This document shows, piece by piece, positions 9,516 through 42,128 of a DNA stretch of 47,318 bases. The DNA is from Patescibacteria group bacterium (GTDB lineage: Bacteria > Patescibacteriota > Minisyncoccia > Phycocordibacterales > PALSA-1337). Both the position numbers and the translations under genes were made by a program. The notes under the pieces are model-generated. The model worked only from the letters and a program-made list of their open reading frames with translations, made no database searches and was not told the origin of the DNA. Numbering within the stretch: position 1 is the stretch's first letter; each line of letters starts with the position of its first letter. The DNA lies in the NCBI GenBank assembly GCA_028865095.1, contig JAGWLA010000002.1, positions 1 through 47,318 of the forward strand, in the 5' to 3' direction.

Positions 9516-9694
9516 GCAGCTAACTTCGCAGATTGAGTTCTGCCCTCGCGGAGGATTAGAAAGGCTCATCATTAGTCCTACCCAGTGACCAACCCAGCGC
9601 TCTAGAACGCCGGACGAACCGTTTCTTGCCACGAGAGACGGCCTTTAGCGTTCGCCTGCGCGCCCGGTCGGTCCTGCCTTTATCAATACACGAC

Positions 9695-12886
<3,192 letters not shown>

Positions 12887-12904
12887 CCGCTTTTCATCAC
12901 TATC

Positions 12905-16579
<3,675 letters not shown>

Positions 16580-19872: not shown

Positions 19873-22800
19873 ATGAAGAACATCTTATCGGTGCGCGTTT
19901 TAGCCGTCCTGCTCGCGGCCATGCTGCTCTGCTCCGCCCGGTCCGCCCACGCTTCCTCGTCTCTCGCCGTATACCCGTACACTATATCTTCAGGCGACCC
20001 GGAAGCCACGGCCGCGACCATCACGTTCAATACGAGCATCGCCGGCGGCGCGACCATCTCCTACGGGACGACCGCCTCGTATGGCTCGAGCGTCTCCTCT
20101 TCCGCTTCTGTCACCTCTCATTCGATAGCTTTGAGCGGCCTTGCGCCCGATACGACGTATCATTTCATGATCACGGCCACGGATACCGCGGGCGATAGCG
20201 CTACTTCGTCGGACCAGACGTTTACGACGGCGCCCTCCTGCGCGTATTACGTCGATTCCGCGAACGGCAACGACGCCAATAGCGGCACGTCGGTCGCTTC
20301 GCCGCTCCAGCATCTCATGGCCGTGCCCGCTCTTTCCGCCAACGGCCAGAGCATATGCTTGCGGAGAGGGAGCGTCTTCAAGGATTTCCTCGTGGTGGGG
20401 CGCAACGGCACGACGAGCGGCCCGAACGGCAACGGCAAAGTGAATAACGTGACCGTCGAGGATTATGGGCCGGCCAACCTCGCCATGCCTCTCATCGACA
20501 ACAGCGACGCTATCCCAGCGTCGGCATGGAGCCTCGTCCCGGGGACCGTGAGCCTCTACCAGGCGACCGTGACCGGCCCGGGCACGTCGACGACCACTCC
20601 GTATGGGGCATGGACCAATACGTCCGCCTCCACGTACGTCAACGTCTTCGAATGCAAGAGCTCTCCCTGCATCCCGACCGGCGAAGGGGGCAACGATAAT
20701 TTCCTGGAAACGGTGAATTCACAAGCGACCGCGAGCACGACCGCAGGCAGCTACTATATCGCCGGCGAGAATTCGAACGGCTCGAGCGGTCCGACTAGCC
20801 TCGGCAGCTTCACCATATTCATGAACCCGACCGACGGGTCGAGCCCGATCACGAACGGCTATACGTATAGCTTCAGCAACCGCGAGACGGGCATATCCAT
20901 ATACGGCTACAACTCTCTCGTCAAAAATATCGCCGTCAAGAAGAGCTCGGGCAATGGCGGAGGCTTCATCATCGACAGCCTCGACGGCAGCGACGCCACT
21001 TACGAGAACATCGAGGCCGATCAGGGCGGCAAGCACAACATGCTCTGCAGCGGCGGCTGCACGGTCAAGGATTCTAAGTTCGTCGACGCGTATTATCCTT
21101 CCACGGCGAGCTACTTCGTGGCGTTCGATAGCCTCGGGACGGGACTGCCGATCGTCCTGGACAACGACACCTTCCTCGACGGCGTGCTCACTCCCAACAA
21201 TCTCGCCGCGGCCATGATCGACCATACCGGCGACCTCGTACCGTTCTCCGATTTCATCGTCGACGGCGGGCTCGTCGAAGGGGTCAACAACCTCACCACC
21301 GGATGGAGCGGGCTGGGATCGGCCGACCTGACTAAAGCGACCATCAATGGCCTGACCTGCATCAATGCGAGCGGATGCGTAGGCACGCAGGGCACGACGA
21401 CCATCGCCAACGTCCAGGACGTCTCTCCGAACAATTCAGGCGCCACCCTGCTCAAAGTCGGAGGCCCGGGCCCGCTCACCATCGCCTCGAGCACCATGTG
21501 CGACAAAGTGAGCTTCAACCAGTACGGCATCCAGACGACGACGGGGAACCAGCTTACGGTCGCGTCGAGCACCTTCTATGTCCAAAGCGCGAGCGGGTTC
21601 GAGACGGCCATCTATTTCGGCGGCGTCGGTAGCCTGCTCAACATGTTCAATACCATGATCGCCGGCGGCCCGTCGGGAGGCAACCTCTGGATCAAGGATT
21701 CGTCGGCGACCTCGACCGCTCCCTATACCGGCGACTATAACTCGATCTTCCTGCCGAACATCACCCAGGCGACCATCAACGGCACGAACTATACCAGCCT
21801 GGCTTCATGGCAGGCCGCATCGGGACAGGACGCCCATTCGACGACCACCAGCCCGACGCCGAGCCCGCAGACCATCGCCTGCACCCCGCATCAGCTGACG
21901 TTCACCGGCCCCTCATCGGGCGCGGTGGAAGCCTCGAGCGCCAGCTTCACGGTGACGCCGAGCGTAGGCTATAACAGCGTCGGCGCGCCGATCGGCTATG
22001 TCGGCACCGTGACCATCGCTCCGTCAGGGACGGCCGCCGCGGGCCTTTCGCCGGTCACTCTCGTCTTCCCGTATGCCGCATCCACGACCGCCCAGAGCTT
22101 CGCCATCAAGCCGACGGCGACCGGCACGCTTTCGCTCGTGGAATCCGCCGATGGCGCCACCACGAGCCCGGCATTCTTGGCTTCGACGACCTTGACCTAT
22201 ACCGTCTCGGCCGCAGCCCCGTCCGCTCCCTACGGCACCCCGGTCGCCACGGCAGGGAATGGGCAAGCGACGGTCGCATGGTACGCCCCGTATTCGATCG
22301 GCGGCTCTCCCGTGACTTCGTATGCGGTCGCTTCCGATCCTGCCGGTTTCGCTACGACCACTTCCGGCACCTCCATCACCGCGACCGGCCTTTCGAATGG
22401 CACTTCCTATACCTTCACGGTGACGGCCACCAACGCCATCGGCACCAGCGCCTCATCCACGCCGTCGAATGCCGTCACCCCCGCGGTTCCTCCCGCCGCT
22501 CCCGTCACGGCCGCGTCATCGGTCTCTTCGTCCGGCGGTTCCGTCTCGACGGCCGAGCTGGCTTCGCTCCTCGCGCCCGGACCTGCCACGGACGCATACC
22601 TCGCGTCCCGCGGCGCGGCCCCGTCCGCCGCCGCTATCGTGCCCGGCTGTCCTGCGGGCTATGTCTGCACGCCGGCTGCGGTCGGGAGCGCGCCTGCCCC
22701 TGCCGTCCCGGGCGCCTCGGCCTCCGCCTCTTTCCCGAAGTCCCTCCGCCTCGGCGATGTGAGCAGCGAAGTCAAAGCGCTCCAGGCCTATCTGAACGCC

Positions 22801-22968
22801 CATGGCTATGCAGTCGCCTCGGCCGGGCCCGGCTCTCCGGGCCATGAGACAGATATCTTCGGCGCTTTGACCAAAGCGGCCGTCGAAAAGCTCCAGAAAG
22901 CCCTCGGCCTCCCGGCATACGGCTTCTTCGGTCCGATGACCAGGGCAGCGATCGCCGCAGGCAAGTAG
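19873..22968 (+). CDS. Large secreted multidomain surface protein: signal peptide, Fn3-like domain, beta-helix-like region, Ig/Fn3 domains, and a C-terminal peptidoglycan-binding domain
   Basis: Signal peptide MKNILSVRVLAVLLAAMLLCSARSAHA. Fn3-like segments (LAPDTTYHFMITATD; GLSNGTSYTFTVTATNAIGTS). YYVDSANGNDANSGTS is typical of parallel beta-helix proteins. The C-terminal EVKALQAYLNAHGY...AVEKLQKALGL resembles PG_binding_1. Confidence 0.7.
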   Translation: MKNILSVRVLAVLLAAMLLCSARSAHASSSLAVYPYTISSGDPEATAATITFNTSIAGGATISYGTTASYGSSVSSSASVTSHSIALSGLAPDTTYHFMITATDTAGDSATSSDQTFTTAPSCAYYVDSANGNDANSGTSVASPLQHLMAVPALSANGQSICLRRGSVFKDFLVVGRNGTTSGPNGNGKVNNVTVEDYGPANLAMPLIDNSDAIPASAWSLVPGTVSLYQATVTGPGTSTTTPYGAWTNTSASTYVNVFECKSSPCIPTGEGGNDNFLETVNSQATASTTAGSYYIAGENSNGSSGPTSLGSFTIFMNPTDGSSPITNGYTYSFSNRETGISIYGYNSLVKNIAVKKSSGNGGGFIIDSLDGSDATYENIEADQGGKHNMLCSGGCTVKDSKFVDAYYPSTASYFVAFDSLGTGLPIVLDNDTFLDGVLTPNNLAAAMIDHTGDLVPFSDFIVDGGLVEGVNNLTTGWSGLGSADLTKATINGLTCINASGCVGTQGTTTIANVQDVSPNNSGATLLKVGGPGPLTIASSTMCDKVSFNQYGIQTTTGNQLTVASSTFYVQSASGFETAIYFGGVGSLLNMFNTMIAGGPSGGNLWIKDSSATSTAPYTGDYNSIFLPNITQATINGTNYTSLASWQAASGQDAHSTTTSPTPSPQTIACTPHQLTFTGPSSGAVEASSASFTVTPSVGYNSVGAPIGYVGTVTIAPSGTAAAGLSPVTLVFPYAASTTAQSFAIKPTATGTLSLVESADGATTSPAFLASTTLTYTVSAAAPSAPYGTPVATAGNGQATVAWYAPYSIGGSPVTSYAVASDPAGFATTTSGTSITATGLSNGTSYTFTVTATNAIGTSASSTPSNAVTPAVPPAAPVTAASSVSSSGGSVSTAELASLLAPGPATDAYLASRGAAPSAAAIVPGCPAGYVCTPAAVGSAPAPAVPGASASASFPKSLRLGDVSSEVKALQAYLNAHGYAVASAGPGSPGHETDIFGALTKAAVEKLQKALGLPAYGFFGPMTRAAIAAGK

Positions 22969-25965: not shown

Positions 25966-26733
25966 TTATTGGGCGGTCGAGCTCGCGGCGCTCAGCAGCG
26001 TGTCGATGCTCGTCTTCATGGTGGCGTACGACTGGGCTCCGGCCAAAGCGATCTTCGAGCCCGACGGGGTGACGATGACGATATACGGGGTGCCTGTCAC
26101 GCCGGCGTTCACGCCGCCTGCGTATTCGGCGTCGATCTTGCCCTTGAAGGAGCCGCTCGCGACGCATGCGTCGAACGCCTGCTTGTCGAGGCCGGCAGCG
26201 GCAGCGGCCTGGTCCATCTGGCCGCTATCGAGGGAGGAGGATTCGCCGGCGCCGTCGGTCGGGAAAGCGTCGAACCAGGCGTGCTCATATTTCCAGAACG
26301 CCGCATTGCCGCCGAGCGACGCGGCGCATTCGAATGCTTGCGCCTGCGTCCCTGCCAGCGGATGCAGGACGTTGCCGTTCGCATCGGGGGCGTCGAGCGG
26401 GAACTGGCGGTAGACCCACGCGACCTTGCCCGAAGGCCCGTACTGGGCCATGACGCTCTCCATGGTCGAATTGAACATCTTGCAGAACGGGCATGAAGGG
26501 TCGGAGTACTCGACGATCTTGATGGGAGCCGAAGGATTCCCGAATATGTGGTCGGCGGCGGTGACGGGGGCCATGTTGACCTGCGGCAGCGACGGCTGGG
26601 GCTGGGCCGAGCCTGCCGGGGCCGAAGAAGGCCTCTGCTGGGTCCAGATGATGGCTATGGCTATTATCGCGGCGGCGATGATGATCGCCCCCGGAAGGGA
26701 GAGCAGCGATCCGGCGGCCTTGTTCGGTTCCAT
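25966..26733 (-). CDS. DsbA-family thioredoxin-fold protein with an N-terminal membrane anchor
   Basis: Shows EYSDPSCPFCKMF (CxxC) and a TM segment AIIIAAAIIAIAIIW. Confidence 0.75.
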   Translation of the reverse strand: MEPNKAAGSLLSLPGAIIIAAAIIAIAIIWTQQRPSSAPAGSAQPQPSLPQVNMAPVTAADHIFGNPSAPIKIVEYSDPSCPFCKMFNSTMESVMAQYGPSGKVAWVYRQFPLDAPDANGNVLHPLAGTQAQAFECAASLGGNAAFWKYEHAWFDAFPTDGAGESSSLDSGQMDQAAAAAGLDKQAFDACVASGSFKGKIDAEYAGGVNAGVTGTPYIVIVTPSGSKIALAGAQSYATMKTSIDTLLSAASSTAQ

Positions 26734-31539: not shown

Positions 31540-32397
31540 TTATGAGGCCGTGGCATGGAGCTGCGTCTGGTGCTGGTGCAGGAAGTCCCATTGACGGACT
31601 GGAAGGTCGCGATCGACGGGTTTGCTTTCGGCGTCTAGTTTGTGGATCATCTGGTAGGCGACGGAGGCGGGGCGCTCGAACATATTTTGCGCGGCCCTCG
31701 AGTACACGTTGTGCACGGCTTCGGGCGCGCCTCTGTAAAGGAGCGCGAAGACGAGCAGGTCCCGCATCTTCTGCGACATCATCTCGCCGCGGCGCAATTC
31801 GAGGGTGTGCCCCGGCTTCTTCTCGTCGAACGCGGCGATGCCCGGCAGGGCATTCTCTTGGTGCGTCTTGAACCTGCCCTCGACGTCGCTGTCGCCGTCA
31901 GGCCTGCCGCCTCGGGGGCCTTTGGCCCGCAGCTCGCGCTCGATCTCCGGCCATTCAGCGGTGACATGCGCCAACCGCGAGCAGCGGAATTCTTCAGCAA
32001 GGATCTCGCCTTGGCGACGGTCTCGGGGCGTCCCGAACAGGAATACCACCGTGATCTCCTTGCGGTATTCCTCATACCATTTTTTGAGGCGCCCGTGCAC
32101 GCCTTCCATTATGAGTTCAGGGGGCAGAAGCTTATTCTCCTCCTGCGTCCTGCGGTGCCCTGCGAACTCTCGCCCAAGCCGCGTCTTCGGCCGGTCTTGC
32201 CAGTAGCCGATGACGTCAGAGCTCATATCCAGAACCGGGATGTGGGGGTCTGGATCCGCCGCGAACCGGTTATGCGAATCATAATGAGGGTTTCTCCATA
32301 GCGCCGCGCGTATGATATCGCGCATCGTGGACTTTCCTCCCATCACGGGTGCAGTGATGCAGCACAACGGCAGATTTTCTATCGTTATCTTTGCCAT
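31540..32397 (-). CDS. Divergent adenylate-kinase-family (NMP kinase-like) P-loop protein with insertions and a long C-terminal extension
   Basis: Shows a P-loop (APVMGGKST), LFGTPRDRRQGEIL (compare DGFPRxxxQA) and a LID-like RPDGDSDVEGRFKTHQENALP. GC looks slightly lower than in the neighbouring genes, and the flanking spacers are AT-rich. Confidence 0.45.
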   Translation of the reverse strand: MAKITIENLPLCCITAPVMGGKSTMRDIIRAALWRNPHYDSHNRFAADPDPHIPVLDMSSDVIGYWQDRPKTRLGREFAGHRRTQEENKLLPPELIMEGVHGRLKKWYEEYRKEITVVFLFGTPRDRRQGEILAEEFRCSRLAHVTAEWPEIERELRAKGPRGGRPDGDSDVEGRFKTHQENALPGIAAFDEKKPGHTLELRRGEMMSQKMRDLLVFALLYRGAPEAVHNVYSRAAQNMFERPASVAYQMIHKLDAESKPVDRDLPVRQWDFLHQHQTQLHATAS

Positions 32398-32602: not shown

Positions 32603-33745
32603 ATGAATGAGACGGGAACCATCGGTATGGCAGGAACGATGCCGGGAGCTTCGGCGGTCGATGTCATCGACGCCCTGCTCGAGCGGGCGGCGAAGCTCAA
32701 GGCATCCGACGTCCATATCGATCCGCGGGCGTCGGACATCCTGGTCAGATACAGGATCGACGGCGAGGTCGAGCTTGCGGGGTCCGTTCCGAAGCGCTTG
32801 CATGAAGAGGTCATCGCCCGGCTCAAGATCCTCGCGGGAGCCCGGACCGACGTGCATTCCGTGCCTCAGGACGGGCGCTTCAAAGCCGATCTCAAGGAGG
32901 GACCGTACAATGCCCGCGTCTCATTCATGCCGACCTATCACGGGGAGAATGCCGTCATCAGGCTGCTTTCCGCCTCGCTCGCCGGCCAGTGCACGTTCGC
33001 CTCGCTCGGGTTCACCCCGGAGCATGTGGCGCTCATCACCAAGGCGATGGCCGCTTCCGACGGGCTCATCCTCATGACGGGCCCGACGGGCTCCGGCAAG
33101 ACCACCACTTTGCGCGTCTGCCTCGGCCTCAAGGCCGAGGAGCCGATATCGGTGATGACGCTCGAAGACCCCGTCGAATACGAGGTCCCGGGCGTGCGCC
33201 ATGTCCATATACGGCGTTCGCACGGCGTGAGCTTCGCATCGGGCCTCCGGTCGGCCCTGCGGCAAGACCCCGACGTCATCATGGTCGGAGAGATCCGAGA
33301 CGAGGAGACCGCCCAGACAGTGATCCATACCGCGCTGACGGGCCACCTGGTCTTCTCGACCCTCCATACGACGTCGGCGATCGACGCCATCCCGCGATTG
33401 ATGGATATGGGCATCGAGCCGTACCTTCTCGCGGCGACGCTGCGGCTGGTGGTCGGCCAGCGGCTGGTGCGCAGGATATGCGCGGCATGCGACGGCACGC
33501 GATCCGTCGGCGCGGAAGAGTGCGCCGCTTGCCGAGGCACGGGCTATGCCGGCCGTTGCGTGATCGCCGAAGCCTGCGAGATCGACGATGGCATGCGCGA
33601 CAAGATAGTCTCGGGGGCGCCGGTATCGGCTTTGCGGGACCACGCCGCTTTGGCAGGGTTCAAGACCATGTCGCAGGATGCCGGAGAAAAGGTCGATTGG
33701 GGAGTGACTTCGCGCACCGAGGCGCTGGGGGCGCTCGGCGCTTGA
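32603..33745 (+). CDS. pilB: GspE/PilB-family type IV pilus / T2SS assembly ATPase (short N-terminus)
   Basis: Shows Walker A (GPTGSGKTTT), the Asp box / Walker B (DPDVIMVGEIRD), the His box (TGHLVFSTLHT), and a tetracysteine motif CAACDG...CAACRGTGYAGR. Confidence 0.85.
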   Translation: MNETGTIGMAGTMPGASAVDVIDALLERAAKLKASDVHIDPRASDILVRYRIDGEVELAGSVPKRLHEEVIARLKILAGARTDVHSVPQDGRFKADLKEGPYNARVSFMPTYHGENAVIRLLSASLAGQCTFASLGFTPEHVALITKAMAASDGLILMTGPTGSGKTTTLRVCLGLKAEEPISVMTLEDPVEYEVPGVRHVHIRRSHGVSFASGLRSALRQDPDVIMVGEIRDEETAQTVIHTALTGHLVFSTLHTTSAIDAIPRLMDMGIEPYLLAATLRLVVGQRLVRRICAACDGTRSVGAEECAACRGTGYAGRCVIAEACEIDDGMRDKIVSGAPVSALRDHAALAGFKTMSQDAGEKVDWGVTSRTEALGALGA

Positions 33746-33746
33746 T

Positions 33747-34814
33747 ATGATGCGGAAGATCCGGGCATGGATGGCGCGCGCTCGGCCGGCATGGCGGCAG
33801 CGCGATAAGGCCATGCTGATAGAGCGCCTGGGCATGTATATCGGCGCCGGCCTGCCCGTCGACAGGGCTCTTCTGGCAGCGGCAGACGGGGCGCCGGCCA
33901 GACAAGAGGATTCTTTGAAGAGGGCGGCTGCCGCGGCAGGATCCGGCCAGCCTTTCTGGAAGGCCATCGATCGCGAAGCAAGGCTTCCGGCTTCGGTCCG
34001 CGGCATCGTCTCATGCGGAGAGGCGTCAGGCGGGCTGGCGTCAGCCCTCGCCTCGGCAGCGTCGGTCATGGAAAGGTCCGCCGATATGAAGAGCAAATGC
34101 CTGTCGGCGATGGCCTATCCGGCCGTCATCGCATGCGCGACGGTCGCCATATCCATCGGGCTCATGCGCGGAGTCATGCCGCAGATAGAGCCGTTGCTCA
34201 AGGGCATCGGCTCCGGCCTCCCGCCGCTCACTGTCGCCGTCATGGCAGCCTCCGATCTCCTGGCCTCATATTGGGGGTATGGGCTGTCTGCGACGGCGGC
34301 TCTCGCGGCCGTGCTGTGGTACGGCCATCGGTTCACTCCCGTCCGAGCGGCGATACAGCGGGCCCTCGCTCTTGTCCCGCTGGTCGGGCCGGCCGCGCAT
34401 GCTTATTCGGCATCGGCGATGGCGCGGTCCCTCGGCGCTCTCATGGCGTCGGGCATGCCAGTGGATGCGGCATATGGGGAGGCGATCGGAGCGGTCCCAT
34501 TGCTGAAGCTCCGCAGATCGCTCGAAGCGAAGAAAGAGGGGGTCAGCCGAGGCGAGCCGCTCAATGCCGCCCTGAAGCCGGCGTTGCCTGCCTATGCGTC
34601 GTCCATCGTCGCGGCGGGAGAGATGTCGGGCGATGTCGCCGCGGCTCTCGTGCGGGCGGCGGATATCATGGACAAGGAGCTCGACCGGTCGCTGAAACGG
34701 GCAGCCTCGCTCATCGAGCCGTTGATGATGATGGCCATGGGGACGGCGGTGGGCACGGTCGCGCTGTCGATAATGATGCCGATATATGACATGTCGAAGG
34801 CACTCCAGCATTGA
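33747..34814 (+). CDS. pilC: GspF/PilC-family platform protein
   Basis: Two T2SS-F-like halves with 3 TM segments. It starts 2 nt after pilB. Confidence 0.75.
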   Translation: MMRKIRAWMARARPAWRQRDKAMLIERLGMYIGAGLPVDRALLAAADGAPARQEDSLKRAAAAAGSGQPFWKAIDREARLPASVRGIVSCGEASGGLASALASAASVMERSADMKSKCLSAMAYPAVIACATVAISIGLMRGVMPQIEPLLKGIGSGLPPLTVAVMAASDLLASYWGYGLSATAALAAVLWYGHRFTPVRAAIQRALALVPLVGPAAHAYSASAMARSLGALMASGMPVDAAYGEAIGAVPLLKLRRSLEAKKEGVSRGEPLNAALKPALPAYASSIVAAGEMSGDVAAALVRAADIMDKELDRSLKRAASLIEPLMMMAMGTAVGTVALSIMMPIYDMSKALQH

Positions 34815-34821
34815 ACATGCC

Positions 34822-36291
34822 TTGCCGAGCCCGGGCACGGCGGCCAGGGGCTCGGTCCTCGCCGATGTCCTCGTCGCTTTCGCCGTCGCGGCGCTGTCGG
34901 TCGCTTCATTGTCGCAGGCGACAGCTTCGGCGCGCCAGGCATTCGGGAGAGCGGAGAGCAGGTCCTCGCTCATACAGGCCTTTGAAGAGCATCAAGGAGG
35001 ATTCGAAGGCCTGATGCCGGGCGAGCGGCGGACGGCGGTCTACGAGGGCGTGCGCTTCGAAGCTGAGGCCAGGCGCTATGCCCAAAGCAGGATAGAGACC
35101 GATATCGCAGTCTCGTATGACGCGAGCCGGGCGGCGAGCAGGCCGTACTCCGATGAGGCCGTCGCCTTCGCCATGGTCCGGCCCGATCCGTCAGGTGCGG
35201 CGGGCATTCTTGTCGGCGGACGCCTCTGCGCTGCGGATATGGACGCGGATGAGCCGGTCGGCTCATACGGCTTCTTTGCCTCGTCGAGCAAGGCCGTGCG
35301 GGCCCATATCGTCCCGGTGACGCTCCCCATCGACCCGCTCTTGCCCCTCACCGACATCGCCGTGCACGACGGCAGGGCATATGTGGCGGCGGATTCGGCG
35401 AAGCGGTCGGACCCCGACTTCATCGTCGCCGACATATCCGACCCGTCGCGGCCGCGGATCGTCGGGGCGATCGATACCGGGCCGGGGATCGCAAGCATCG
35501 CGGTCGCGGGAGGCCACGCTTTCGCGGCATCGGCGAGCGCTGCGGCCCAGCTCCAATCCATCCGCTTGAGCGAGGCCGGGCCTCCCGTCCTCGAAGCGAG
35601 CTATCGCCTTCCATTGCCCGAGGCGAGCACGTCGCCTCCGCATGGGACCGCCATCGCCTACAGCCGCGGCATCGCGTACCTCGGCACCGACCGATGGGAC
35701 GGGGAAGAGCTGTCCGCCATCGACGTCTCCGATCCTGCGGCGCCGGCGAAAGTCGGCGGCTTCGAGACAGGCGGAAAGATCAACGATATCGAGGCGCTCG
35801 AGCGGGCGGCCTATGTCGCGGCGGCAGACGCCAGCCAGTTCCGGGCTCTGGACGTGTCCGACCCCCGGTCTATCTCGCTGATAAGCGCCTTCAGCCCGTC
35901 GGGCTGGGAGCGCCAATCCGGCGAGCGGGTGCATTCATTCGAAGGCCGGGTATCGTTCGGAAGGACATCGGGCGGGTTCGATATCGCCGCCGACAAAGAG
36001 CTCTTCGTCTCGGCCGGAGAGGCATTCGCCGGCGCGGCATCGGCGAACATGCCCGGCGGAGTGTATGGGATAGCCTCCGACAGGCGAAGGACCATCGTCG
36101 CGACCGCGTCCTTCGATAAGGAGCTCACGATCTACGATGCCGCATTGTCGCCCGCCAGCACGCGGGAGTGGCCCTTGCCGGCCGCTCCGCAGGCGATGAC
36201 GTGCGATAGGAGCACGGTGTACGTGCTGGCGCGGACCGCGCCGGTCATATATGAAGTCACTCTATCGACATCGGGGAATGACGCTGATTGA
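34822..36291 (+). CDS. Pilin-like signal/anchor fused to an LVIVD-repeat beta-propeller (putative pilus-associated adhesin)
   Basis: A TTG at 34822 gives MPSPGTAARG|SVLADVLVAFAVAALSVASL; an alternative ATG at 34786 would overlap pilC by 29 nt. The body carries LVIVD-like repeats (FIVADISDPSRPRIVG, LSAIDVSDPAAPAKVGG, FRALDVSDPRSISLISAF). Confidence 0.6.
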   Translation: MPSPGTAARGSVLADVLVAFAVAALSVASLSQATASARQAFGRAESRSSLIQAFEEHQGGFEGLMPGERRTAVYEGVRFEAEARRYAQSRIETDIAVSYDASRAASRPYSDEAVAFAMVRPDPSGAAGILVGGRLCAADMDADEPVGSYGFFASSSKAVRAHIVPVTLPIDPLLPLTDIAVHDGRAYVAADSAKRSDPDFIVADISDPSRPRIVGAIDTGPGIASIAVAGGHAFAASASAAAQLQSIRLSEAGPPVLEASYRLPLPEASTSPPHGTAIAYSRGIAYLGTDRWDGEELSAIDVSDPAAPAKVGGFETGGKINDIEALERAAYVAAADASQFRALDVSDPRSISLISAFSPSGWERQSGERVHSFEGRVSFGRTSGGFDIAADKELFVSAGEAFAGAASANMPGGVYGIASDRRRTIVATASFDKELTIYDAALSPASTREWPLPAAPQAMTCDRSTVYVLARTAPVIYEVTLSTSGNDAD

Positions 36292-36412
36292 GGCGCTCGT
36301 CTATGCCGCGCTCCTGGCTTTTCTGATGGCCGGCCTTATGCAGTCGATCTATGCCGCCGGGCAGTCTGATTCCGGCATCATGGAAAGGATATATCGGGCA
36401 TATGAAGGATAA
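36251..36412 (+). CDS. Mini-pilin: 53-aa prepilin-like ORF, not in the supplied ORF track
   Basis: Reads MKSLYRHRG|MTLIEALVYAALLAFLMAGLMQSIYAAGQSDSGIMERIYRAYEG then TAA. It has the canonical basic leader, Gly, then xTLIE with Glu at +5. It overlaps the upstream gene by 41 nt and the downstream gene by 11 nt. Confidence 0.55.
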   Translation: MKSLYRHRGMTLIEALVYAALLAFLMAGLMQSIYAAGQSDSGIMERIYRAYEG

Positions 36413-36731
36413 GCCGTTATCAGGCGGATACGGCGCCGCTGTCGCGGTCGCGATCGTCGCTGTCGGCTCGCTCGCATCGTCTCTGGCATGCATGTCGGCC
36501 GTCAGGGCGTATGCCGACTCCGTATATCGCCGCGAGCTCCGCATCCAGGCCTCTCTGAATGCCGATTCGTGCATAGAAGAGCTCCCTCTTCTCGCGGCCG
36601 CCGACCCGTTCATCGAAGGCGATATAGCGCTTCCCGAGTTCGGGTGCGTCCTGCATGTCGTCGCGGGCCCCGGCGGCCCTTATGCCGCAGGAGCCTCGGC
36701 GTCGCTCGAAGGGGTGTCTTCGAGCCGCTAA
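36402..36731 (+). CDS. Small membrane-anchored protein, possible minor pilus component (PilX/GspK-like N-terminus lacking Glu5)
   Basis: Begins MKDKPLSGGYGAAVAVAIVAVGSLASS. Its position between the pilin genes is suggestive. The ATG at 36402 overlaps the mini-pilin stop. Confidence 0.4.
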   Translation: MKDKPLSGGYGAAVAVAIVAVGSLASSLACMSAVRAYADSVYRRELRIQASLNADSCIEELPLLAAADPFIEGDIALPEFGCVLHVVAGPGGPYAAGASASLEGVSSSR

Positions 36732-36766: not shown

Positions 36767-37252
36767 ATGCATCGCCATCCATCAATGAAAGGGTTCACTC
36801 TCATCGAAGTCCTCGTCGTCATCGGCATCATCGCCATCCTCGCCGCCGTCGTCCTTGTGGCCGTCAACCCGGGCAGGCAGTTCAAGCTGGCCCGCGATTC
36901 CCAGCGCACCGCCAACGTCGAAGCCCTCGTCAACGCCATCCACCAGAATATGTCCGAGCATCGGGGGTCGTTCGTGTGCGGCGGCGCGGCCAGGGCGTTG
37001 CCGCACGCGTTGACCGCGATCAGAGGGGATGCGACGGACAGCTATGCGGCCTCCGGATACTTGGGCGACATCGCTTCGTGCCTGGTCCCTGACTATATCT
37101 CGGCGCTCCCGTTCGATCCTGCGGTGCCGAGGGCGCATTTCGCCAGCACGACCGATTACGATACGGGATACGAGATCGTCCAAGGCGCGGACGGCCGCAT
37201 CACGGCCAGCTCGACCGGCGAGCTGGTCCCGACGATCGCGGCCACCCAGTAG
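36767..37252 (+). CDS. Type IV pilin / pseudopilin with a prepilin N-terminal cleavage-methylation motif
   Basis: Begins MHRHPSMKG|FTLIEVLVVIGIIAILAAVVLVA. An alternative ATG at 36785 would give MKG|FTLIE. Confidence 0.8.
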   Translation: MHRHPSMKGFTLIEVLVVIGIIAILAAVVLVAVNPGRQFKLARDSQRTANVEALVNAIHQNMSEHRGSFVCGGAARALPHALTAIRGDATDSYAASGYLGDIASCLVPDYISALPFDPAVPRAHFASTTDYDTGYEIVQGADGRITASSTGELVPTIAATQ

Positions 37253-37292: not shown

Positions 37293-38297
37293 ATGTCGGG
37301 CGGCAAGCACATCTTCTTCCTTTTTTTCATCGCGGCGGTCGCGGTCGTCGTGGCCTTCGAGATCAAGGCTGCGCAGGGAGAAGGGCTCTTCCAGCCCGGA
37401 CGGGCGACGGACGCGGTCGCGACAGCTGAAGCGCCGAGCGCAGCGCCTCGGATCGACCCCGACTTCCTCGCCTCGCCTTCGTCCACGCCGGCGACGCCCC
37501 CGGAACCACTTCCGAAGCCGGCTGATGCGGCGGCCTCGCCCGCATACCCTGCGCCGGCGGAGGATACGGTGACCGCCGACGCCTATCTGGTCGGCGACCT
37601 GGCGACGGGGAAGATATATCTCCAGAAAGACCCTGATGCGGTCATGCCCATCGCCTCGATGTCGAAGCTCGTCACCGCCATCGTGGCGACGGACACGATG
37701 TCGCCGACGACGACCGTCGAAGTGACGGAGCCGGAGACCGAAGTCTATCCCGACCCCAGCAACCTTCAGGCCGGGGAGAAGTTCTCCATGAAGGAGCTCC
37801 TCTATCCGCTCCTCCTCGATTCGTCGAACGTGGCCGCCGAAGCGCTGGCTTCGTCGACCGACCGGGCGCATTTCCTCAATCTTATGAACGGCTACGCTTG
37901 GGAGATCGGCATGTCCCACTCGTATTTCGGCGACCCGTCAGGCTTGAGCCCGCATAACCAGGCATCCGCCAGCGACTTCTTCAAGCTCGCCCGGTATGTC
38001 TATTCGAGCAGGCCCGACCTGTTCCAGATCACCAGGATACCCAGCGTATCGGTGGCGACGACATCCGACCATGGCGCCCACGCCTTCGACAGCATCCATC
38101 CGTTCGTCAGAGACCCGCGCTTCATCGGCGGGAAGACCGGCCACACCGACGAAGCCGGAGACACCATGCTCACGGTCCTGCGCCTCCATGGCCGCCCGAT
38201 CGCCGTCATCGTGCTGCATTCGCTCACCGGGGAGCGGGCGCACGACACCGAGCTCCTGGCCGACAAGGCCGACGCGCTCCTCGCGGCGGGGCAGTAG
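37293..38297 (+). CDS. D-alanyl-D-alanine carboxypeptidase (S11 / PBP5-like) with an N-terminal anchor
   Basis: Shows SxxK (ASMSKLVTA), SxN (DSSNVAAE) and KTG (GGKTGHTDEAG). Confidence 0.8.
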   Translation: MSGGKHIFFLFFIAAVAVVVAFEIKAAQGEGLFQPGRATDAVATAEAPSAAPRIDPDFLASPSSTPATPPEPLPKPADAAASPAYPAPAEDTVTADAYLVGDLATGKIYLQKDPDAVMPIASMSKLVTAIVATDTMSPTTTVEVTEPETEVYPDPSNLQAGEKFSMKELLYPLLLDSSNVAAEALASSTDRAHFLNLMNGYAWEIGMSHSYFGDPSGLSPHNQASASDFFKLARYVYSSRPDLFQITRIPSVSVATTSDHGAHAFDSIHPFVRDPRFIGGKTGHTDEAGDTMLTVLRLHGRPIAVIVLHSLTGERAHDTELLADKADALLAAGQ

Positions 38298-38302
38298 AGG
38301 CT

Positions 38303-39070
38303 TCAGCCGAGCCAGCCGCTGACGATGGCCTCGGTCTCTTCGGGGCCTTTCACTTCGACGCAGTCGATGCCCGTCGCTTTGGCCGGGTAGTCGTTGCCGC
38401 CGGGCATGAGCTTGTCGCCGACGAAGACCATGTCGTCGATGTGCATATGGAGGTGCTCTTCGAGCTTGCGGATGCCGTAGCCCTTGTTCACGCCGCGCCG
38501 GGTGATGTCGATGGAGTTGGTGCCGCCGATGCGCACGTCGAAGCCGGGGATCTTCTCCTTGATGGCGTCCGCGATCTTCCGCCGCTTCTCGCCAGAAGGG
38601 TCCCAGCGCTCCTTGACCGCGAGCGGGGCGTCCTGCCCGTTAGCGGAGAACGTGACTTGCGAACCGCGGTCCTCGATGGCCGGGCCGAACGTCTTCGCGG
38701 GCTTCTCGACGCCGGATGCCGCCAGGGCGGCGTTCAAAGCGGCCATGATGGCCTCTTTCTCGCGCGGCGCGAGATGCTCGGCGTATTCCTCGCACCAGAC
38801 GCTCCTCCATACCAGCAGCCGGGTCCCGGATGCGGGCAGGAGGAACAGGTTCGCGAACCCTTCCGCCGCCGCAGGCAAGGCGCTCAAGAAATTAGCCTCG
38901 AACTCCTTGTAGCCGCTCCCCGATATGACCGCTACTTTCACCTCTTTGAGCAGGCGGACGATGAGGGCCCCCATGGCGGCGGACATGGGGGATTTGCTCG
39001 GGGCGAGCGTGCCGTCGAGGTCGAATATCACCAGCTTCTTCATGCGGATGTCGGGAGGGCTGTTCGTCAT
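38303..39070 (-). CDS. HAD-IIB hydrolase, phosphomannomutase-like / sugar phosphatase-like
   Basis: Shows VIFDLDGTLAPS (motif I), VISGSG, and FVGDKLMPGGNDYP (motif IV). Its start overlaps the upstream stop (ATGA). Confidence 0.7.
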   Translation of the reverse strand: MTNSPPDIRMKKLVIFDLDGTLAPSKSPMSAAMGALIVRLLKEVKVAVISGSGYKEFEANFLSALPAAAEGFANLFLLPASGTRLLVWRSVWCEEYAEHLAPREKEAIMAALNAALAASGVEKPAKTFGPAIEDRGSQVTFSANGQDAPLAVKERWDPSGEKRRKIADAIKEKIPGFDVRIGGTNSIDITRRGVNKGYGIRKLEEHLHMHIDDMVFVGDKLMPGGNDYPAKATGIDCVEVKGPEETEAIVSGWLG

Positions 39071-40968
39071 GTCTTCAGCATATCGAGGATCGCCTTGAGC
39101 TTGATCGAGGCGACGCCGCAGACGCTGTCGGCCGCGCCGTAATACATATAAAGGGTGCCGTTGCGCTCGACGAGGCCGCAGGGGAAGACGACGTTCGGGG
39201 TCGCCCCTTTGCGCTCGTACTCCTCTTCAGGCTCGAAGAGCGGTATGGCGGTGCGGGCGACCACGACCGTCGGATCGTCGAGGCCGAGGAGCACCGCCCC
39301 GACGCGGTACGTGGTGCTCCAGGAGACGCCGTGATAGAGGAGCAGCCATCCCGACTTCGTCTTGAGAGGAGGGGCCGATATGCCGACCTTGCCCCCGTCC
39401 CACATGCCGCGGCGGGGCGCGATGATCTCGATGCACTTCGTGACCTTCTCGGCGCTGAAATCGAGGGAATCCACCAAGTCGGCGCACACGCTTTCCCTGA
39501 CGCGATGGAATACCAGGTAGCGCCCGCCGACGCTCTCAGGCAGAATGGCGGCGTCCTTGTCGTCCACGCCCGGCGGAGTGATGGCGTACGGCGCGCTCCA
39601 GGATCCCCACTTCTTGGCCAGGAAATCGGCGACGGAGATGGAGCTCACTGCGACCCGCGGGGTATGCCCGTCATATCCCGTATAGGCCATATAGAGGCGG
39701 TCGCCGATGCGCATGACGCGCGGGTCCTCGCAGCCGTAGTTCTCCGCGCCGTCGCGGCGGGTCTCGAACGGCGCCCGGGGGAAATAGATGGGCTTGTCGG
39801 AGCGCTCGTCGATGGAGAAGCCGTCGCTCGTAGAGGCGTAGCCGATGGTCGAGACGTTCCCCCGGGCCACCGCGCGGTAGAGGATGTGCGTCGTGTCGCC
39901 GAGGTCGATGGCGGCGGGGTTGATCGTCCCGGCCGCCTCCCATTGGACGCCCGGGCGCGGGGCGATGATCGGGTTGCCGGGGAAGCGGGCGAAGCTGCGC
40001 TGCGGCGGGTCGACGATGCTGCGGAGCAGGTTGTCGAGCGGGATGCTGGCCATGGCGCAGTAGGTGTCGGCCGCGCCGTAATAGACCTCGAGCTTGCCGT
40101 CGGCGACGAGGGCGCCGCTCGGGAAGATGATGCTCGGGACCTCGCCGACGCGCTCATAATGGGTCTCGGGGACCATGAACGGCCCTTTGGTCCTTCCTAC
40201 GATGCGGCGCGGGTTCTCATGGTCGAGAAGGAGCGTCTCGACGCCGAAGACGCAATCGGGCTTCGCATACCGCTGGATATGCGAATAGACGATCAGCCAG
40301 CCCTTCTCGGTCCAGACCGGCGGCGCGCCGAGCTCGATATGGTCGTCAGGCAGGCGGCGGATGTGGAGCTTGTGGGAGTCGACGCTCTTCAGCCACTCTT
40401 CCCAATAGGCCGGCGACCACATGTCCTCGGGGGAATCGAATTCGGCGAAGCAGATGTCGGCCGGCTTGCGGTCCGTATTGATGGTGAGCAGGGCGCAGAG
40501 CTTGCCGCCGATCCTCTTCGGGAAGAGAGCCATGGCTTTGGCGTTGAACGGCGTCACCAGATGCTTTTCGGAGACAGAGCGGAGGTCTTTCGAAAGGGCC
40601 ACCGCCACTTTGATGTTGTCGGCAGAATACGGGAAGCCGCCGAGGGCGGTATAGAAGATGTAATACGTCCCGCCTATCTCGGTCACGCGGGGATCCTCGC
40701 AGCCGTACCGGTCGAAATCGCTTCCGGGCGTCACGAGCGCTTTCCGCTCGCCAAAGTGGATGCCGTCGTCGGAGAAGGAGCTGCCGATGACGGAAGTCTT
40801 GATATGGGTCGGCTGGAGGAGGTCCGGCTGGGACATGCACCGGTAGACCATGCAGGCGCGCGAGCCCGCCTTCACCGGGCATCCGTTGAATGCGGCGGAA
40901 GCTTCCCACGGATGGTCTTCCGTCGGGGACAGCAGGGGATTATGGGGAGAGCGGGTGACCGTGAACAT
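39067..40968 (-). CDS. Tandem double GH130-like (DUF377 glycosidase/phosphorylase) protein, 633 aa
   Basis: Two homologous halves, each with NP(L/I)(L/I)xP, WE..A.FN(G/P)A, YGCEDPRV and an ...Y.(F/A)YT core. Confidence 0.7.
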   Translation of the reverse strand: MFTVTRSPHNPLLSPTEDHPWEASAAFNGCPVKAGSRACMVYRCMSQPDLLQPTHIKTSVIGSSFSDDGIHFGERKALVTPGSDFDRYGCEDPRVTEIGGTYYIFYTALGGFPYSADNIKVAVALSKDLRSVSEKHLVTPFNAKAMALFPKRIGGKLCALLTINTDRKPADICFAEFDSPEDMWSPAYWEEWLKSVDSHKLHIRRLPDDHIELGAPPVWTEKGWLIVYSHIQRYAKPDCVFGVETLLLDHENPRRIVGRTKGPFMVPETHYERVGEVPSIIFPSGALVADGKLEVYYGAADTYCAMASIPLDNLLRSIVDPPQRSFARFPGNPIIAPRPGVQWEAAGTINPAAIDLGDTTHILYRAVARGNVSTIGYASTSDGFSIDERSDKPIYFPRAPFETRRDGAENYGCEDPRVMRIGDRLYMAYTGYDGHTPRVAVSSISVADFLAKKWGSWSAPYAITPPGVDDKDAAILPESVGGRYLVFHRVRESVCADLVDSLDFSAEKVTKCIEIIAPRRGMWDGGKVGISAPPLKTKSGWLLLYHGVSWSTTYRVGAVLLGLDDPTVVVARTAIPLFEPEEEYERKGATPNVVFPCGLVERNGTLYMYYGAADSVCGVASIKLKAILDMLKT

Positions 40969-40976
40969 CCCTCAGA

Positions 40977-42128
40977 TTATACGGCACCATAGGCCGCGAG
41001 CCAATCGAGGAGGCTGCGGAGCGGCGTGCGGGCGGCGCAGACATGCTTGTCGCCGCCGCCGTAATAGACATGCAGCATGCCGTCTTTCACCACCGCCCCC
41101 GACGCATAGACGACGCCGGGCTTGCCGTCGTTCTCGTAGGGCGCTTCGGGAAGGAGGATCGGCTCGGGCGAGCGGTAGAGCACCCTCGTCGGCTCGTCGG
41201 GATCGAGCACCAGGGCGCCGACGCTATATCCGACGGCCTTGCGGGGGTCGCGCTCGTCGAACGCGTGATAGAGCACCAGCCAGCCGAGCCCGGTCCGGAT
41301 TGGCGGCGAGCCGGTCCCGCGCATGCGCCGGTCCCAATGGCCCGCGCGGCCCGGGTCGGCATATCCCCACCCTCCGTGGTCGGAGGCGCTGTCGATCTGC
41401 CGCTTCCCGAAGAAGTCGTCGACGCTGTCGACATAGTCGATGAGCACTTTCGGCGAGAGGCCGTGCAGTATGGCGAATTTCCCGCGGATCTTCTCGGGGA
41501 AGAGCACCCAGTTCTTGTTGCGCTTCCTGGCGGGCGAGATGAGCACCGGGCGCTTCCATGCCCAGCGCCGGCGCTTGAGGTCGTCGAGGCCGATGGAAGT
41601 GACGGCGATGCGCATGCTCTCCCAGCCCTCGAACGCCATATAGGTCATGTATACCCGGTCGCCGATGCGGACGGCCCGGGGGTCTTCCGCGCCGCCCCAG
41701 CCTCCGCCGGAAGGATGCTCGGCGATGTCATAGCCGTGCGGCCCGGGGACGCGCATCGGGTCGGGCATGCCGAAGCCGGGCTGCGGATTGAAGACCGGGA
41801 ACGGGGAGCGGTACGACACGTCGAGCCCGTCGGGGCTCCGGGCATAGCCGATCCGCGATATGCCGTCGCCGCCGATGGCCCGATAGAAGAGGTGGACCGT
41901 CCCTTCGTCGTCGCAGACAGCGGCCGGGTTGAACGTGCCCTCGCTTTCCCACTCGACATGGGGCTGGGGCGATATGAGGGGGTTGCGGGCGTGCCGCGAG
42001 AGCCCGGCGGCCGGCCTTCCGGCCGCGCGCTTCCTTTTCCGCCGCGCTGCGCCCTGGACGATGACGCATATGAAGGCGATCGCCGCTACGACCAGCGCTG
42101 CGAGAGCGACGATGATAGCGGGGTCCAT
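40977..42128 (-). CDS. GH130-like protein with an N-terminal TM anchor followed by RRKRKR
   Basis: Shows MDPAIIVALAALVVAAIAFICVIV, NPLISPQPHVEWESEGTFNPAAV and GGAEDPRAVRIGDRVYMTYMAF. Confidence 0.7.
   Translation of the reverse strand: MDPAIIVALAALVVAAIAFICVIVQGAARRKRKRAAGRPAAGLSRHARNPLISPQPHVEWESEGTFNPAAVCDDEGTVHLFYRAIGGDGISRIGYARSPDGLDVSYRSPFPVFNPQPGFGMPDPMRVPGPHGYDIAEHPSGGGWGGAEDPRAVRIGDRVYMTYMAFEGWESMRIAVTSIGLDDLKRRRWAWKRPVLISPARKRNKNWVLFPEKIRGKFAILHGLSPKVLIDYVDSVDDFFGKRQIDSASDHGGWGYADPGRAGHWDRRMRGTGSPPIRTGLGWLVLYHAFDERDPRKAVGYSVGALVLDPDEPTRVLYRSPEPILLPEAPYENDGKPGVVYASGAVVKDGMLHVYYGGGDKHVCAARTPLRSLLDWLAAYGAV

Follow-up and report, generated by a model that had tools for sequence, protein, structure and literature searches.

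A propeller gene with a prepilin-like signal

The stretch of DNA analysed here, referred to as the window, comprises 47,318 nucleotides (positions 1 to 47,318) of contig JAGWLA010000002.1 from a Patescibacteria group bacterium (assembly GCA_028865095.1). At positions 34786-36291 on the plus strand, following a gene for a PilC/GspF-like platform protein (here called pilC), it carries an open reading frame (ORF) encoding a bimodular pilin-like protein of 501 amino acids, in which a pilin-like N-terminal module precedes a beta-propeller. This is the sole long reading frame at its place that is rich in G and C at third codon positions (high GC3). The start codon is uncertain from the sequence: translation may begin at ATG 34786, giving a leader of 22 residues, or at TTG 34822 in the same frame, giving one of 10. 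Read from the ATG, the gene overlaps the 3′ end of pilC by 29 nt (34786-34814), an arrangement that may allow translational coupling; the ATG itself is generated by the Tyr-Asp codons of the PilC C-terminus, which reads PIYDMSKALQH in the window. The MTYRR/MIFPK N-terminus of database homologs was considered as a conserved leader and rejected, since it arises from reading the conserved PilC C-terminus (PIYDxSKALQH) in another frame.

The leader (34786-34851, plus strand) ends in Arg-Gly (...AARG) with either start. From TTG 34822 the protein begins MPSPGTAARG↓SVLADVLVAFAVAALSVASL, where the arrow marks the site after Gly22 (codon 34849-34851) at which a prepilin peptidase is predicted to cut; the fifth residue beyond it is Asp27 (codon 34864-34866). 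Two features of a class III signal, a short basic leader with Gly at position −1 and a run of about 20 hydrophobic residues, are present. An earlier note on this DNA had described these elements, namely an ORF directly after pilC with a basic, Gly-terminated leader, a hydrophobic stretch and Asp in place of Glu at +5, and all of them are found where it placed them. We scanned stop-to-stop ORFs of at least 40 amino acids in six frames for Gly, four hydrophobic or small residues, Asp or Glu, and 15 further hydrophobic or small residues. Three of the 594 ORFs in the window match, and all three belong to one operon: the propeller gene, a mini-pilin gene and a major-pilin gene. In an alignment of 108 homologs (mean column identity 39%), Gly occupies −1 in 89 of the 89 aligned sequences that reach this column and Asp occupies +5 in 105 of 105. 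Position −2 is mostly Arg, Lys, Ser or Gln, +1 is Met, Ile, Leu or Phe, +2 is Ile or Leu and +3 is Leu, with (M/I)IL(V/I)DILLALSLA..F as the family consensus after Gly. Because the pattern occurs only three times in the 594 ORFs and is conserved in the homologs, the signal goes beyond what chance would produce.

Predicted structure of the propeller protein

The AlphaFold2 model, computed with the 108-sequence alignment, has a mean predicted local distance difference test score (pLDDT) of 92.8 and a predicted template modelling score (pTM) of 0.88. Residues 1-19 are disordered and the leader has a pLDDT below 50. Directly past Gly22 starts the alpha-1 helix (residues 23-73, 51 residues; 34852-35004, plus strand, as are all parts of the gene; pLDDT ~96), whose first ~20 residues are hydrophobic and include Asp27. 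A four-stranded antiparallel sheet follows at residues 81-133 (35026-35184), with DSSP strands at 81-86, 89-98, 102-111 and 125-133 both in this model and in one of the N-terminal 168 residues alone, which gives the same helix and sheet with a pLDDT above 90. A linker (residues 134-170; 35185-35295; pLDDT 80-82) containing Cys148 leads into a seven-bladed LVIVD beta-propeller (residues ~171-495; 35296-36270), which is modelled as 28 strands, seven blades of four, with a pLDDT of ~97, and is recognized by Foldseek as well as by Pfam. The Pfam match to LVIVD (PF08309) covers residues 190-231 at 38.9 bits (cut-off 20.2; E 5e-10); three clear AYVA...(I/L)DVSDP units are visible in the protein, and about half of the listed homologs have a precomputed PF08309 match.

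In the model, helix and sheet resemble the "lollipop" head of a pilin and, together with the propeller, would amount to the architecture of a bimodular pilin. The earlier note had recognized the LVIVD repeats and proposed that the propeller is fused to a pilin stem, suggesting structure prediction as a check. The repeats stand, the prediction returned seven blades and an N-terminal helix starting at the expected residue, and the fusion agrees with the long helix, the sheet, the operon context and the acid at +5; every computable part of the interpretation is thus supported. One detail can be refined: of the roughly 450 residues beyond the hydrophobic helix, which the note described as containing the repeats, the propeller takes up residues ~171-495, and the first ~110 are not propeller but form the rest of the helix and the small sheet.

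PilY1 contributes no chain to the top 50 Foldseek matches of the whole model, and the Pfam PilC/PilY1 domain (IPR008707) does not match the protein at E≤0.1. A sequence-profile search of solved structures found nothing, NCBIfam (including TIGR02532) has no match for the protein, neither Pfam nor Foldseek points to a DNA-binding signature in it, and PADLOC reports no match to a defence system.

Cys148 in the linker and Cys473 in the last blade are invariant in the homolog alignment, which suggests that the two may form a disulfide and that the protein is extracytoplasmic. With regard to such a possible pairing of the two cysteines, we note a gene for a DsbA-like thioredoxin elsewhere in the window (25966-26733, minus strand).

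The operon and its other pilin-like proteins

The genes flanking the propeller gene are all on the plus strand. Upstream lies a GspE/PilB-like assembly ATPase of 380 amino acids without N-terminal accessory domains (32603-33745; Pfam T2SSE, E 7e-101), which matches PilB, PilF and GspE chains in the PDB at E 1e-70 to 1e-76. It is followed by the platform protein (33747-34814; 355 amino acids; Pfam T2SSF, E 5e-37; NCBIfam GspF, E 1e-58, under the cut-off). Among NCBIfam models, both proteins score best with GspE/PilB and GspF, above ComGA and ComGB, and none of these reaches its equivalog cut-off. The ATPase, ~370-380 amino acids long across loci, is encoded 5′ of the propeller gene in 77 of 83 orthologous loci, and the platform gene is found in 80 of them.

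Downstream, and sharing 41 nt with the 3′ end of the propeller gene, is a mini-pilin (36251-36412; MKSLYRHRG↓MTLIEALVY...) with 44 mature residues, recognized by Pfam N_methyl (27.6 bits; cut-off 21.2). It lies immediately 3′ of the propeller gene in nearly all loci with enough flanking sequence, where it begins G↓MTLIE, has 41-52 mature residues and consists essentially of a lone alpha-1 helix; it would rank among the shortest known pilins. The next gene (36402-36731) encodes a pilin-like protein with a hydrophobic start after a leader ending in Gly, but without an acidic residue at +5 (...KPLSGG↓YGAAVAVAIV..., with G↓F(I/A)AxxAV in orthologs). Its orthologs, detected with phmmer in 69 of the 83 loci, are 70-125 residues long. 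The protein is marked by a Cys pair and by the conserved motif RRE(L/M)R(I/V)Q, and neither Pfam nor NCBIfam has a family for it. Its G↓FIxxxAV start may resemble that of ComGG. Last in the operon is a candidate major pilin of ~152 mature residues (36767-37252; MHRHPSMKG↓FTLIEVLVVIGIIA...), which passes the cut-offs of both Pfam N_methyl and TIGR02532. A canonical major pilin starting G↓FTLIEVLVVIGIIA, with ~147 mature residues and a highly conserved N-terminus, is present in 38 loci, about half.

The gene order ATPase, platform, propeller protein, mini-pilin, pilin-like protein and, in part of the loci, major pilin is fixed in ~80 species, and the combination of type 4 filament (T4F) machinery 5′ of the propeller gene with three class-III-signal genes 3′ of it is conserved in 77-80 of the 83 loci. 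Because the mini-pilin and the major pilin pass Pfam N_methyl, the operon must depend on a prepilin peptidase.

A variation on this arrangement is seen in Taylorbacteria-like genomes, where one continuous ORF covers both the mini-pilin and the pilin-like protein after it, with an internal ...KG↓F(I/V)ATTA site (L006 7536-8009, L008 6981-7442, L012 7439-7888, L017 7409-7870, L018 3686-4105, L026 7503-7901 and L047 7558-8055). These fused ORFs usually carry an in-frame Met ~10 residues ahead of the internal site, and could represent a tandem pre-pilin polyprotein or, alternatively, nested starts of translation.

Family distribution and conservation

Among 5.8 billion proteins, more than 500 match the propeller protein, and the best 120 of these are full-length with 35-50% identity. 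Where the best matches have informative source names, these are all Patescibacteria (Parcubacteria, Paceibacterota, Taylorbacteria). A scan of one genome per species in GTDB located the gene in 85 species. Many of the orthologous loci (L007, L012, L016-L018 and others) are labelled Candidatus Saccharibacteria (TPA) yet show Paceibacteria-type synteny, and these labels may be generic.

The position of the acidic residue is retained even where its identity changes. In the same operon slot, ~66 loci encode Asp at +5, and 12 divergent orthologous loci encode the canonical Glu in the motif G↓FLxxE. That Asp and Glu alternate at exactly this position, in proteins occupying the same slot, is the strongest sequence argument that the segment is the N-terminal half of a pilin alpha-1 helix rather than a generic membrane anchor.

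Searching 1.84 billion representative proteins with a profile built from the N-terminal 168 residues recovered 83 proteins, nearly all of them ~430-530 amino acids long or shorter fragments. Since the profile recovers just this family, the pilin-like module occurs solely together with this LVIVD propeller. A protein of 2519 amino acids (P0146) with 30 stretches matching the profile was rejected as a translated tandem repeat with a spurious summed score.

A probable tip-displayed minor pilin

Taken together, these observations make it likely that the propeller protein is a bimodular minor pilin displayed at the filament tip, encoded in a compact T4F operon of Patescibacteria with genomes of the Paceibacteria/Parcubacteria/Taylorbacteria type. 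In such a scenario the protein would enter the membrane via its class III signal, and a prepilin peptidase whose gene lies in another part of the genome would cut after Gly22. The hydrophobic N-terminal half of the ~51-residue alpha-1 helix would then allow the GspE/PilB-like ATPase and the PilC/GspF-like platform to load the subunit into the filament. Together with the mini-pilin, which has Glu5, and the pilin-like protein whose +5 residue is not acidic, it would form a priming complex that ends up at the filament tip while the canonical major pilin polymerises beneath. The propeller, which would be too bulky for the body of the filament, would be exposed at the tip as a ligand-binding (adhesin) module, and it is because of this bulk that we expect the protein to be confined to the tip. 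Its ligand would most plausibly be a glycan or protein of the host surface, by analogy with PilX2 of another member of the phylum (see below) and given the episymbiotic lifestyle.

In other pilins, Glu5 pairs with the N-terminal amine of the neighbouring subunit. The acidic residue at +5 of the propeller protein, Asp or in some orthologs Glu, would likewise neutralise a neighbour's amine. The substitution has been made experimentally elsewhere: the E5D variant of Pseudomonas aeruginosa PilA undergoes processing and is built into surface pili (bioRxiv 10.1101/2022.05.13.491915), and Vibrio cholerae TcpB-E5D is slightly impaired but nearly wild type (PMC5207764). Because both variants work, Asp5 is compatible with pilin function. 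By the logic developed for TcpB, a subunit that needs no acidic +5 is the first in the filament (PMC5207764). On this criterion the candidate for the first, tip-most subunit is, judging from its N-terminus, the small pilin-like neighbour (36402-36731), and the propeller pilin is therefore probably second or third in the tip complex.

Several points weigh against this reading. The same logic that orders the tip complex implies that the very first subunit at the tip may be another than the propeller protein. As for its behaviour as a pilin, we infer all of cleavage, methylation and incorporation into a filament. The negative charge at +5 is kept, but as Asp and not the Glu that defines pilins, which goes against a strict definition of the class III signal. 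Pfam N_methyl (PF07963) matches none of 45 N-terminal modules of the family, even at E≤1, so that the family is invisible to the usual pilin signature; orthologs with Glu5 are likewise without a match. Compared with the PDB by Foldseek, the N-terminal module has no significant pilin match (best E 0.07; the GspI-type pseudopilins EpsI and XcpV at 0.27 and 0.34), and its putative membership of the pilin fold is suggested by the topology of the model and not by a database match. For the whole model, Foldseek returns generic seven- and eight-bladed propellers alone (beta-TrCP, E 3e-10; WD40 and BamB types), and thus no functional lead to a ligand. Neither the window nor the flanks of ~80 loci contain a prepilin peptidase, PilT or PilMNO; for the peptidase, a scan of the window and ~1 Mb of orthologous flanks for the motif GxGD[VIFALC]K found none, which is a weak negative given the crudeness of the scan.

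Some of these points are what would be seen if the hydrophobic segment were an uncleaved signal-anchor. The protein would then be an accessory part of the membrane complex, replacing PilMNO-type alignment proteins or docking to the cell wall or S-layer, with the propeller facing outward and never polymerised. An operon without bitopic proteins of the PilM/N/O type makes an extra membrane component plausible, and a plain anchor would be missed by pilin motif models and find no significant match among solved pilin structures, as is the case here. A strict Gly at −1 with an acid at exactly +5, alternating between Asp and Glu, is nevertheless a prepilin signature that is unexpected in a plain anchor, the 51-residue helix packs on its four-stranded sheet as in a pilin head, and the gene is contiguous with three further genes for class III signals; we regard the anchor as unlikely. 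Still less does the protein look like an ordinary Sec-secreted surface protein whose pilus neighbours are incidental, an explanation to which we give hardly any credence. It is common for LVIVD proteins to be plain proteins of the cell surface (PMC10210494), and the protein of the window does have an Ala-x-Ala-like site past its hydrophobic segment at which signal peptidase I could cut, e.g. TASA↓RQ after residue 49. Position −3 of this site is mostly Leu, Val or Ile in homologs, however, and the model puts the site within an unbroken, confidently predicted helix; R50, F53, A56 and R59, which follow the site, are conserved. Nor would such a protein be expected to have a conserved buried acid in its ~20-residue hydrophobic stretch, or a gene order that is fixed in ~80 species.

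If the protein is a filament subunit, the filament could still be other than a host-binding pilus. A minimal set of ATPase, platform and pilins, without a retraction ATPase or PilMNO, is also what comG operons encode, and the models for ComGA (232 bits, cut-off 300; E 5e-69) and ComGB (89 bits, cut-off 240; E 5e-25) match below equivalog level. The propeller protein could accordingly be imagined as a subunit at the tip of a short pseudopilus of the competence or secretion type, its propeller capturing DNA or another substrate. GspE/PilB and GspF outscore ComGA and ComGB, with none of them at cut-off, the searches for a DNA-binding signature found none, and in the TM7x propeller-pilin system, which is of a different family, the contribution was to host binding and not to competence (PMC11623550). 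The idea of a pseudopilus fits the minimal machinery but is without positive support, and we consider it improbable. Equally speculative is a stronger form of the tip-displayed minor pilin, in which the six-gene cassette is a self-sufficient minimal T4F without PilMNO, PilT or a peptidase in the locus, the three non-canonical subunits (the helix-only pilin of 44 residues, the pilin without an acidic +5 and the Asp5 propeller pilin) make up a new kind of priming or tip complex and Asp5 is a functional tuning instead of a neutral exchange. In that case Asp5 could allow weak docking, and the bulky subunit could serve as initiator and as a TcpB-like trigger of retraction in a system without a motor; we consider this reading improbable.

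Comparison with known systems

Fusing a functional module to a pilin is a known principle. Modular pilins have been defined structurally for PilB of Streptococcus sanguinis and are widespread, with 1219 proteins in 264 architectures (Raynaud et al. 2021, PMC8179133). Like S. sanguinis PilB, with its vWA module, and PilC, with its lectin module, the propeller protein consists of a small pilin module, a linker and a bulky functional module, the last of these predicted to lie exposed at the tip. The combination with LVIVD repeats is itself on record: the same dataset contains 30 proteins, several from phyla of the Candidate Phyla Radiation (CPR), in which IPR012902 (N_methyl) is followed by 1-13 copies of IPR013211 (PMC8179133), the LVIVD repeat (PMC10210494). 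The family studied here differs from that N_methyl-based catalogue in having Asp at +5, Ile or Leu at +2 and a private pilin module, and it could not have been included because it is invisible to the N_methyl signature.

A close parallel is PilX2 of Nanosynbacter lyticus TM7x (Saccharibacteria), part of the type 4 pilus system T4P-2, which is required for efficient host binding and has been proposed to be a tip adhesin (PMC11623550). PilX2, too, is a minor pilin of Patescibacteria with a lollipop N-terminus, a C-terminal seven-bladed propeller and a signal that is not recognized as a canonical PilD signal (PMC11623550). Compared by description and not by sequence, the PilX2 propeller is of the RCC1 type, whereas the one in the window is an LVIVD propeller without a Pfam match to RCC1. 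Moreover, the TM7x pilins are encoded in a locus separate from the PilB2/C2/M2/N2/O2 machinery, in contrast to the single compact locus described here.

Other tip proteins share individual features. The PilY1/PilC adhesins of type IVa pili in Pseudomonas, Neisseria and Myxococcus place a propeller at the pilus tip in association with minor pilins, with roles of PilY1 in adhesion and priming; PilY1 is not a pilin and rides on the minor-pilin complex (PMC8179133), whereas here the propeller is covalently fused to the pilin module. TcpB and CofB of type IVb systems (PMC5207764) are large multi-domain minor pilins with an acidic +5, encoded in minimal operons without a retraction ATPase, but their C-terminal part is a beta-repeat plus beta-sandwich instead of a propeller, and each is the sole minor pilin of its system where the present operon has two more. 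GspK, the tip pseudopilin of the type II secretion system, caps the filament and resembles the propeller protein in being the largest member of a small set of minor pilins. It has a hydrophobic +5 and an inserted alpha-domain, and in the operon of the window it is the small neighbour (36402-36731) that lacks the acidic +5.

In view of these precedents, the novelty that the earlier note had implied for a propeller fused directly to a pilin was overstated. The architecture that it suggested looking for in other genomes had already been catalogued in 2021. Both the design principle and a CPR propeller-pilin have been published, which leaves little that is conceptually new. No description of the family itself came up when the literature was searched for LVIVD together with pilin and for minor pilins with a propeller in CPR, and what is specific to it is the LVIVD propeller on a private pilin module, the family-wide Asp5 and the compact, fixed operon with a mini-pilin of 44 residues.

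Patescibacteria, the ultra-small bacteria of the CPR, are thought to need attachment to host cells, for which type 4 pili are the organelle with the best support in the group. The family thus constitutes a concrete, well-modelled candidate tip adhesin for a large Paceibacteria/Parcubacteria branch. Its compact, conserved operon could be reconstituted, and is a lead both for attachment in Paceibacteria and for minimal type 4 filaments. Modular pilins are also more numerous than hitherto counted, since catalogues based on the N_methyl/IPR012902 motif miss whole families in which Asp replaces Glu5.

Remainder of the window

The remaining window is occupied by housekeeping genes, including rpoB, rpoC, dnaG, rpoD, hisS, bipA and infB. 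An ORF of 1872 amino acids (9683-15301, minus strand) without a Pfam match was rejected as a shadow ORF opposite rpoB (9626-12886, plus strand) and rpoC (12905-16579, plus strand). The gene at 19873-22968 (plus strand) encodes 1031 amino acids with a purple-acid-phosphatase-N/FN3-like region, an fn3 domain and a C-terminal PG_binding_1 domain, and its product is likely to be a large surface protein anchored in the cell wall.

An ORF of 285 amino acids (31540-32397, minus strand), located between bipA and the pilus operon, has no match in Pfam or PADLOC; a gene of similar size, also without a Pfam match, occupies the same position in L002 (4722-5591, minus strand). Synteny across species extends beyond the operon on both sides (window 37293-42128; L001 and L002), with bipA 5′ and, on the 3′ side, genes for a Peptidase_S11 (D-Ala-D-Ala carboxypeptidase), a PMM/HAD hydrolase and two GH130 phosphorylases.

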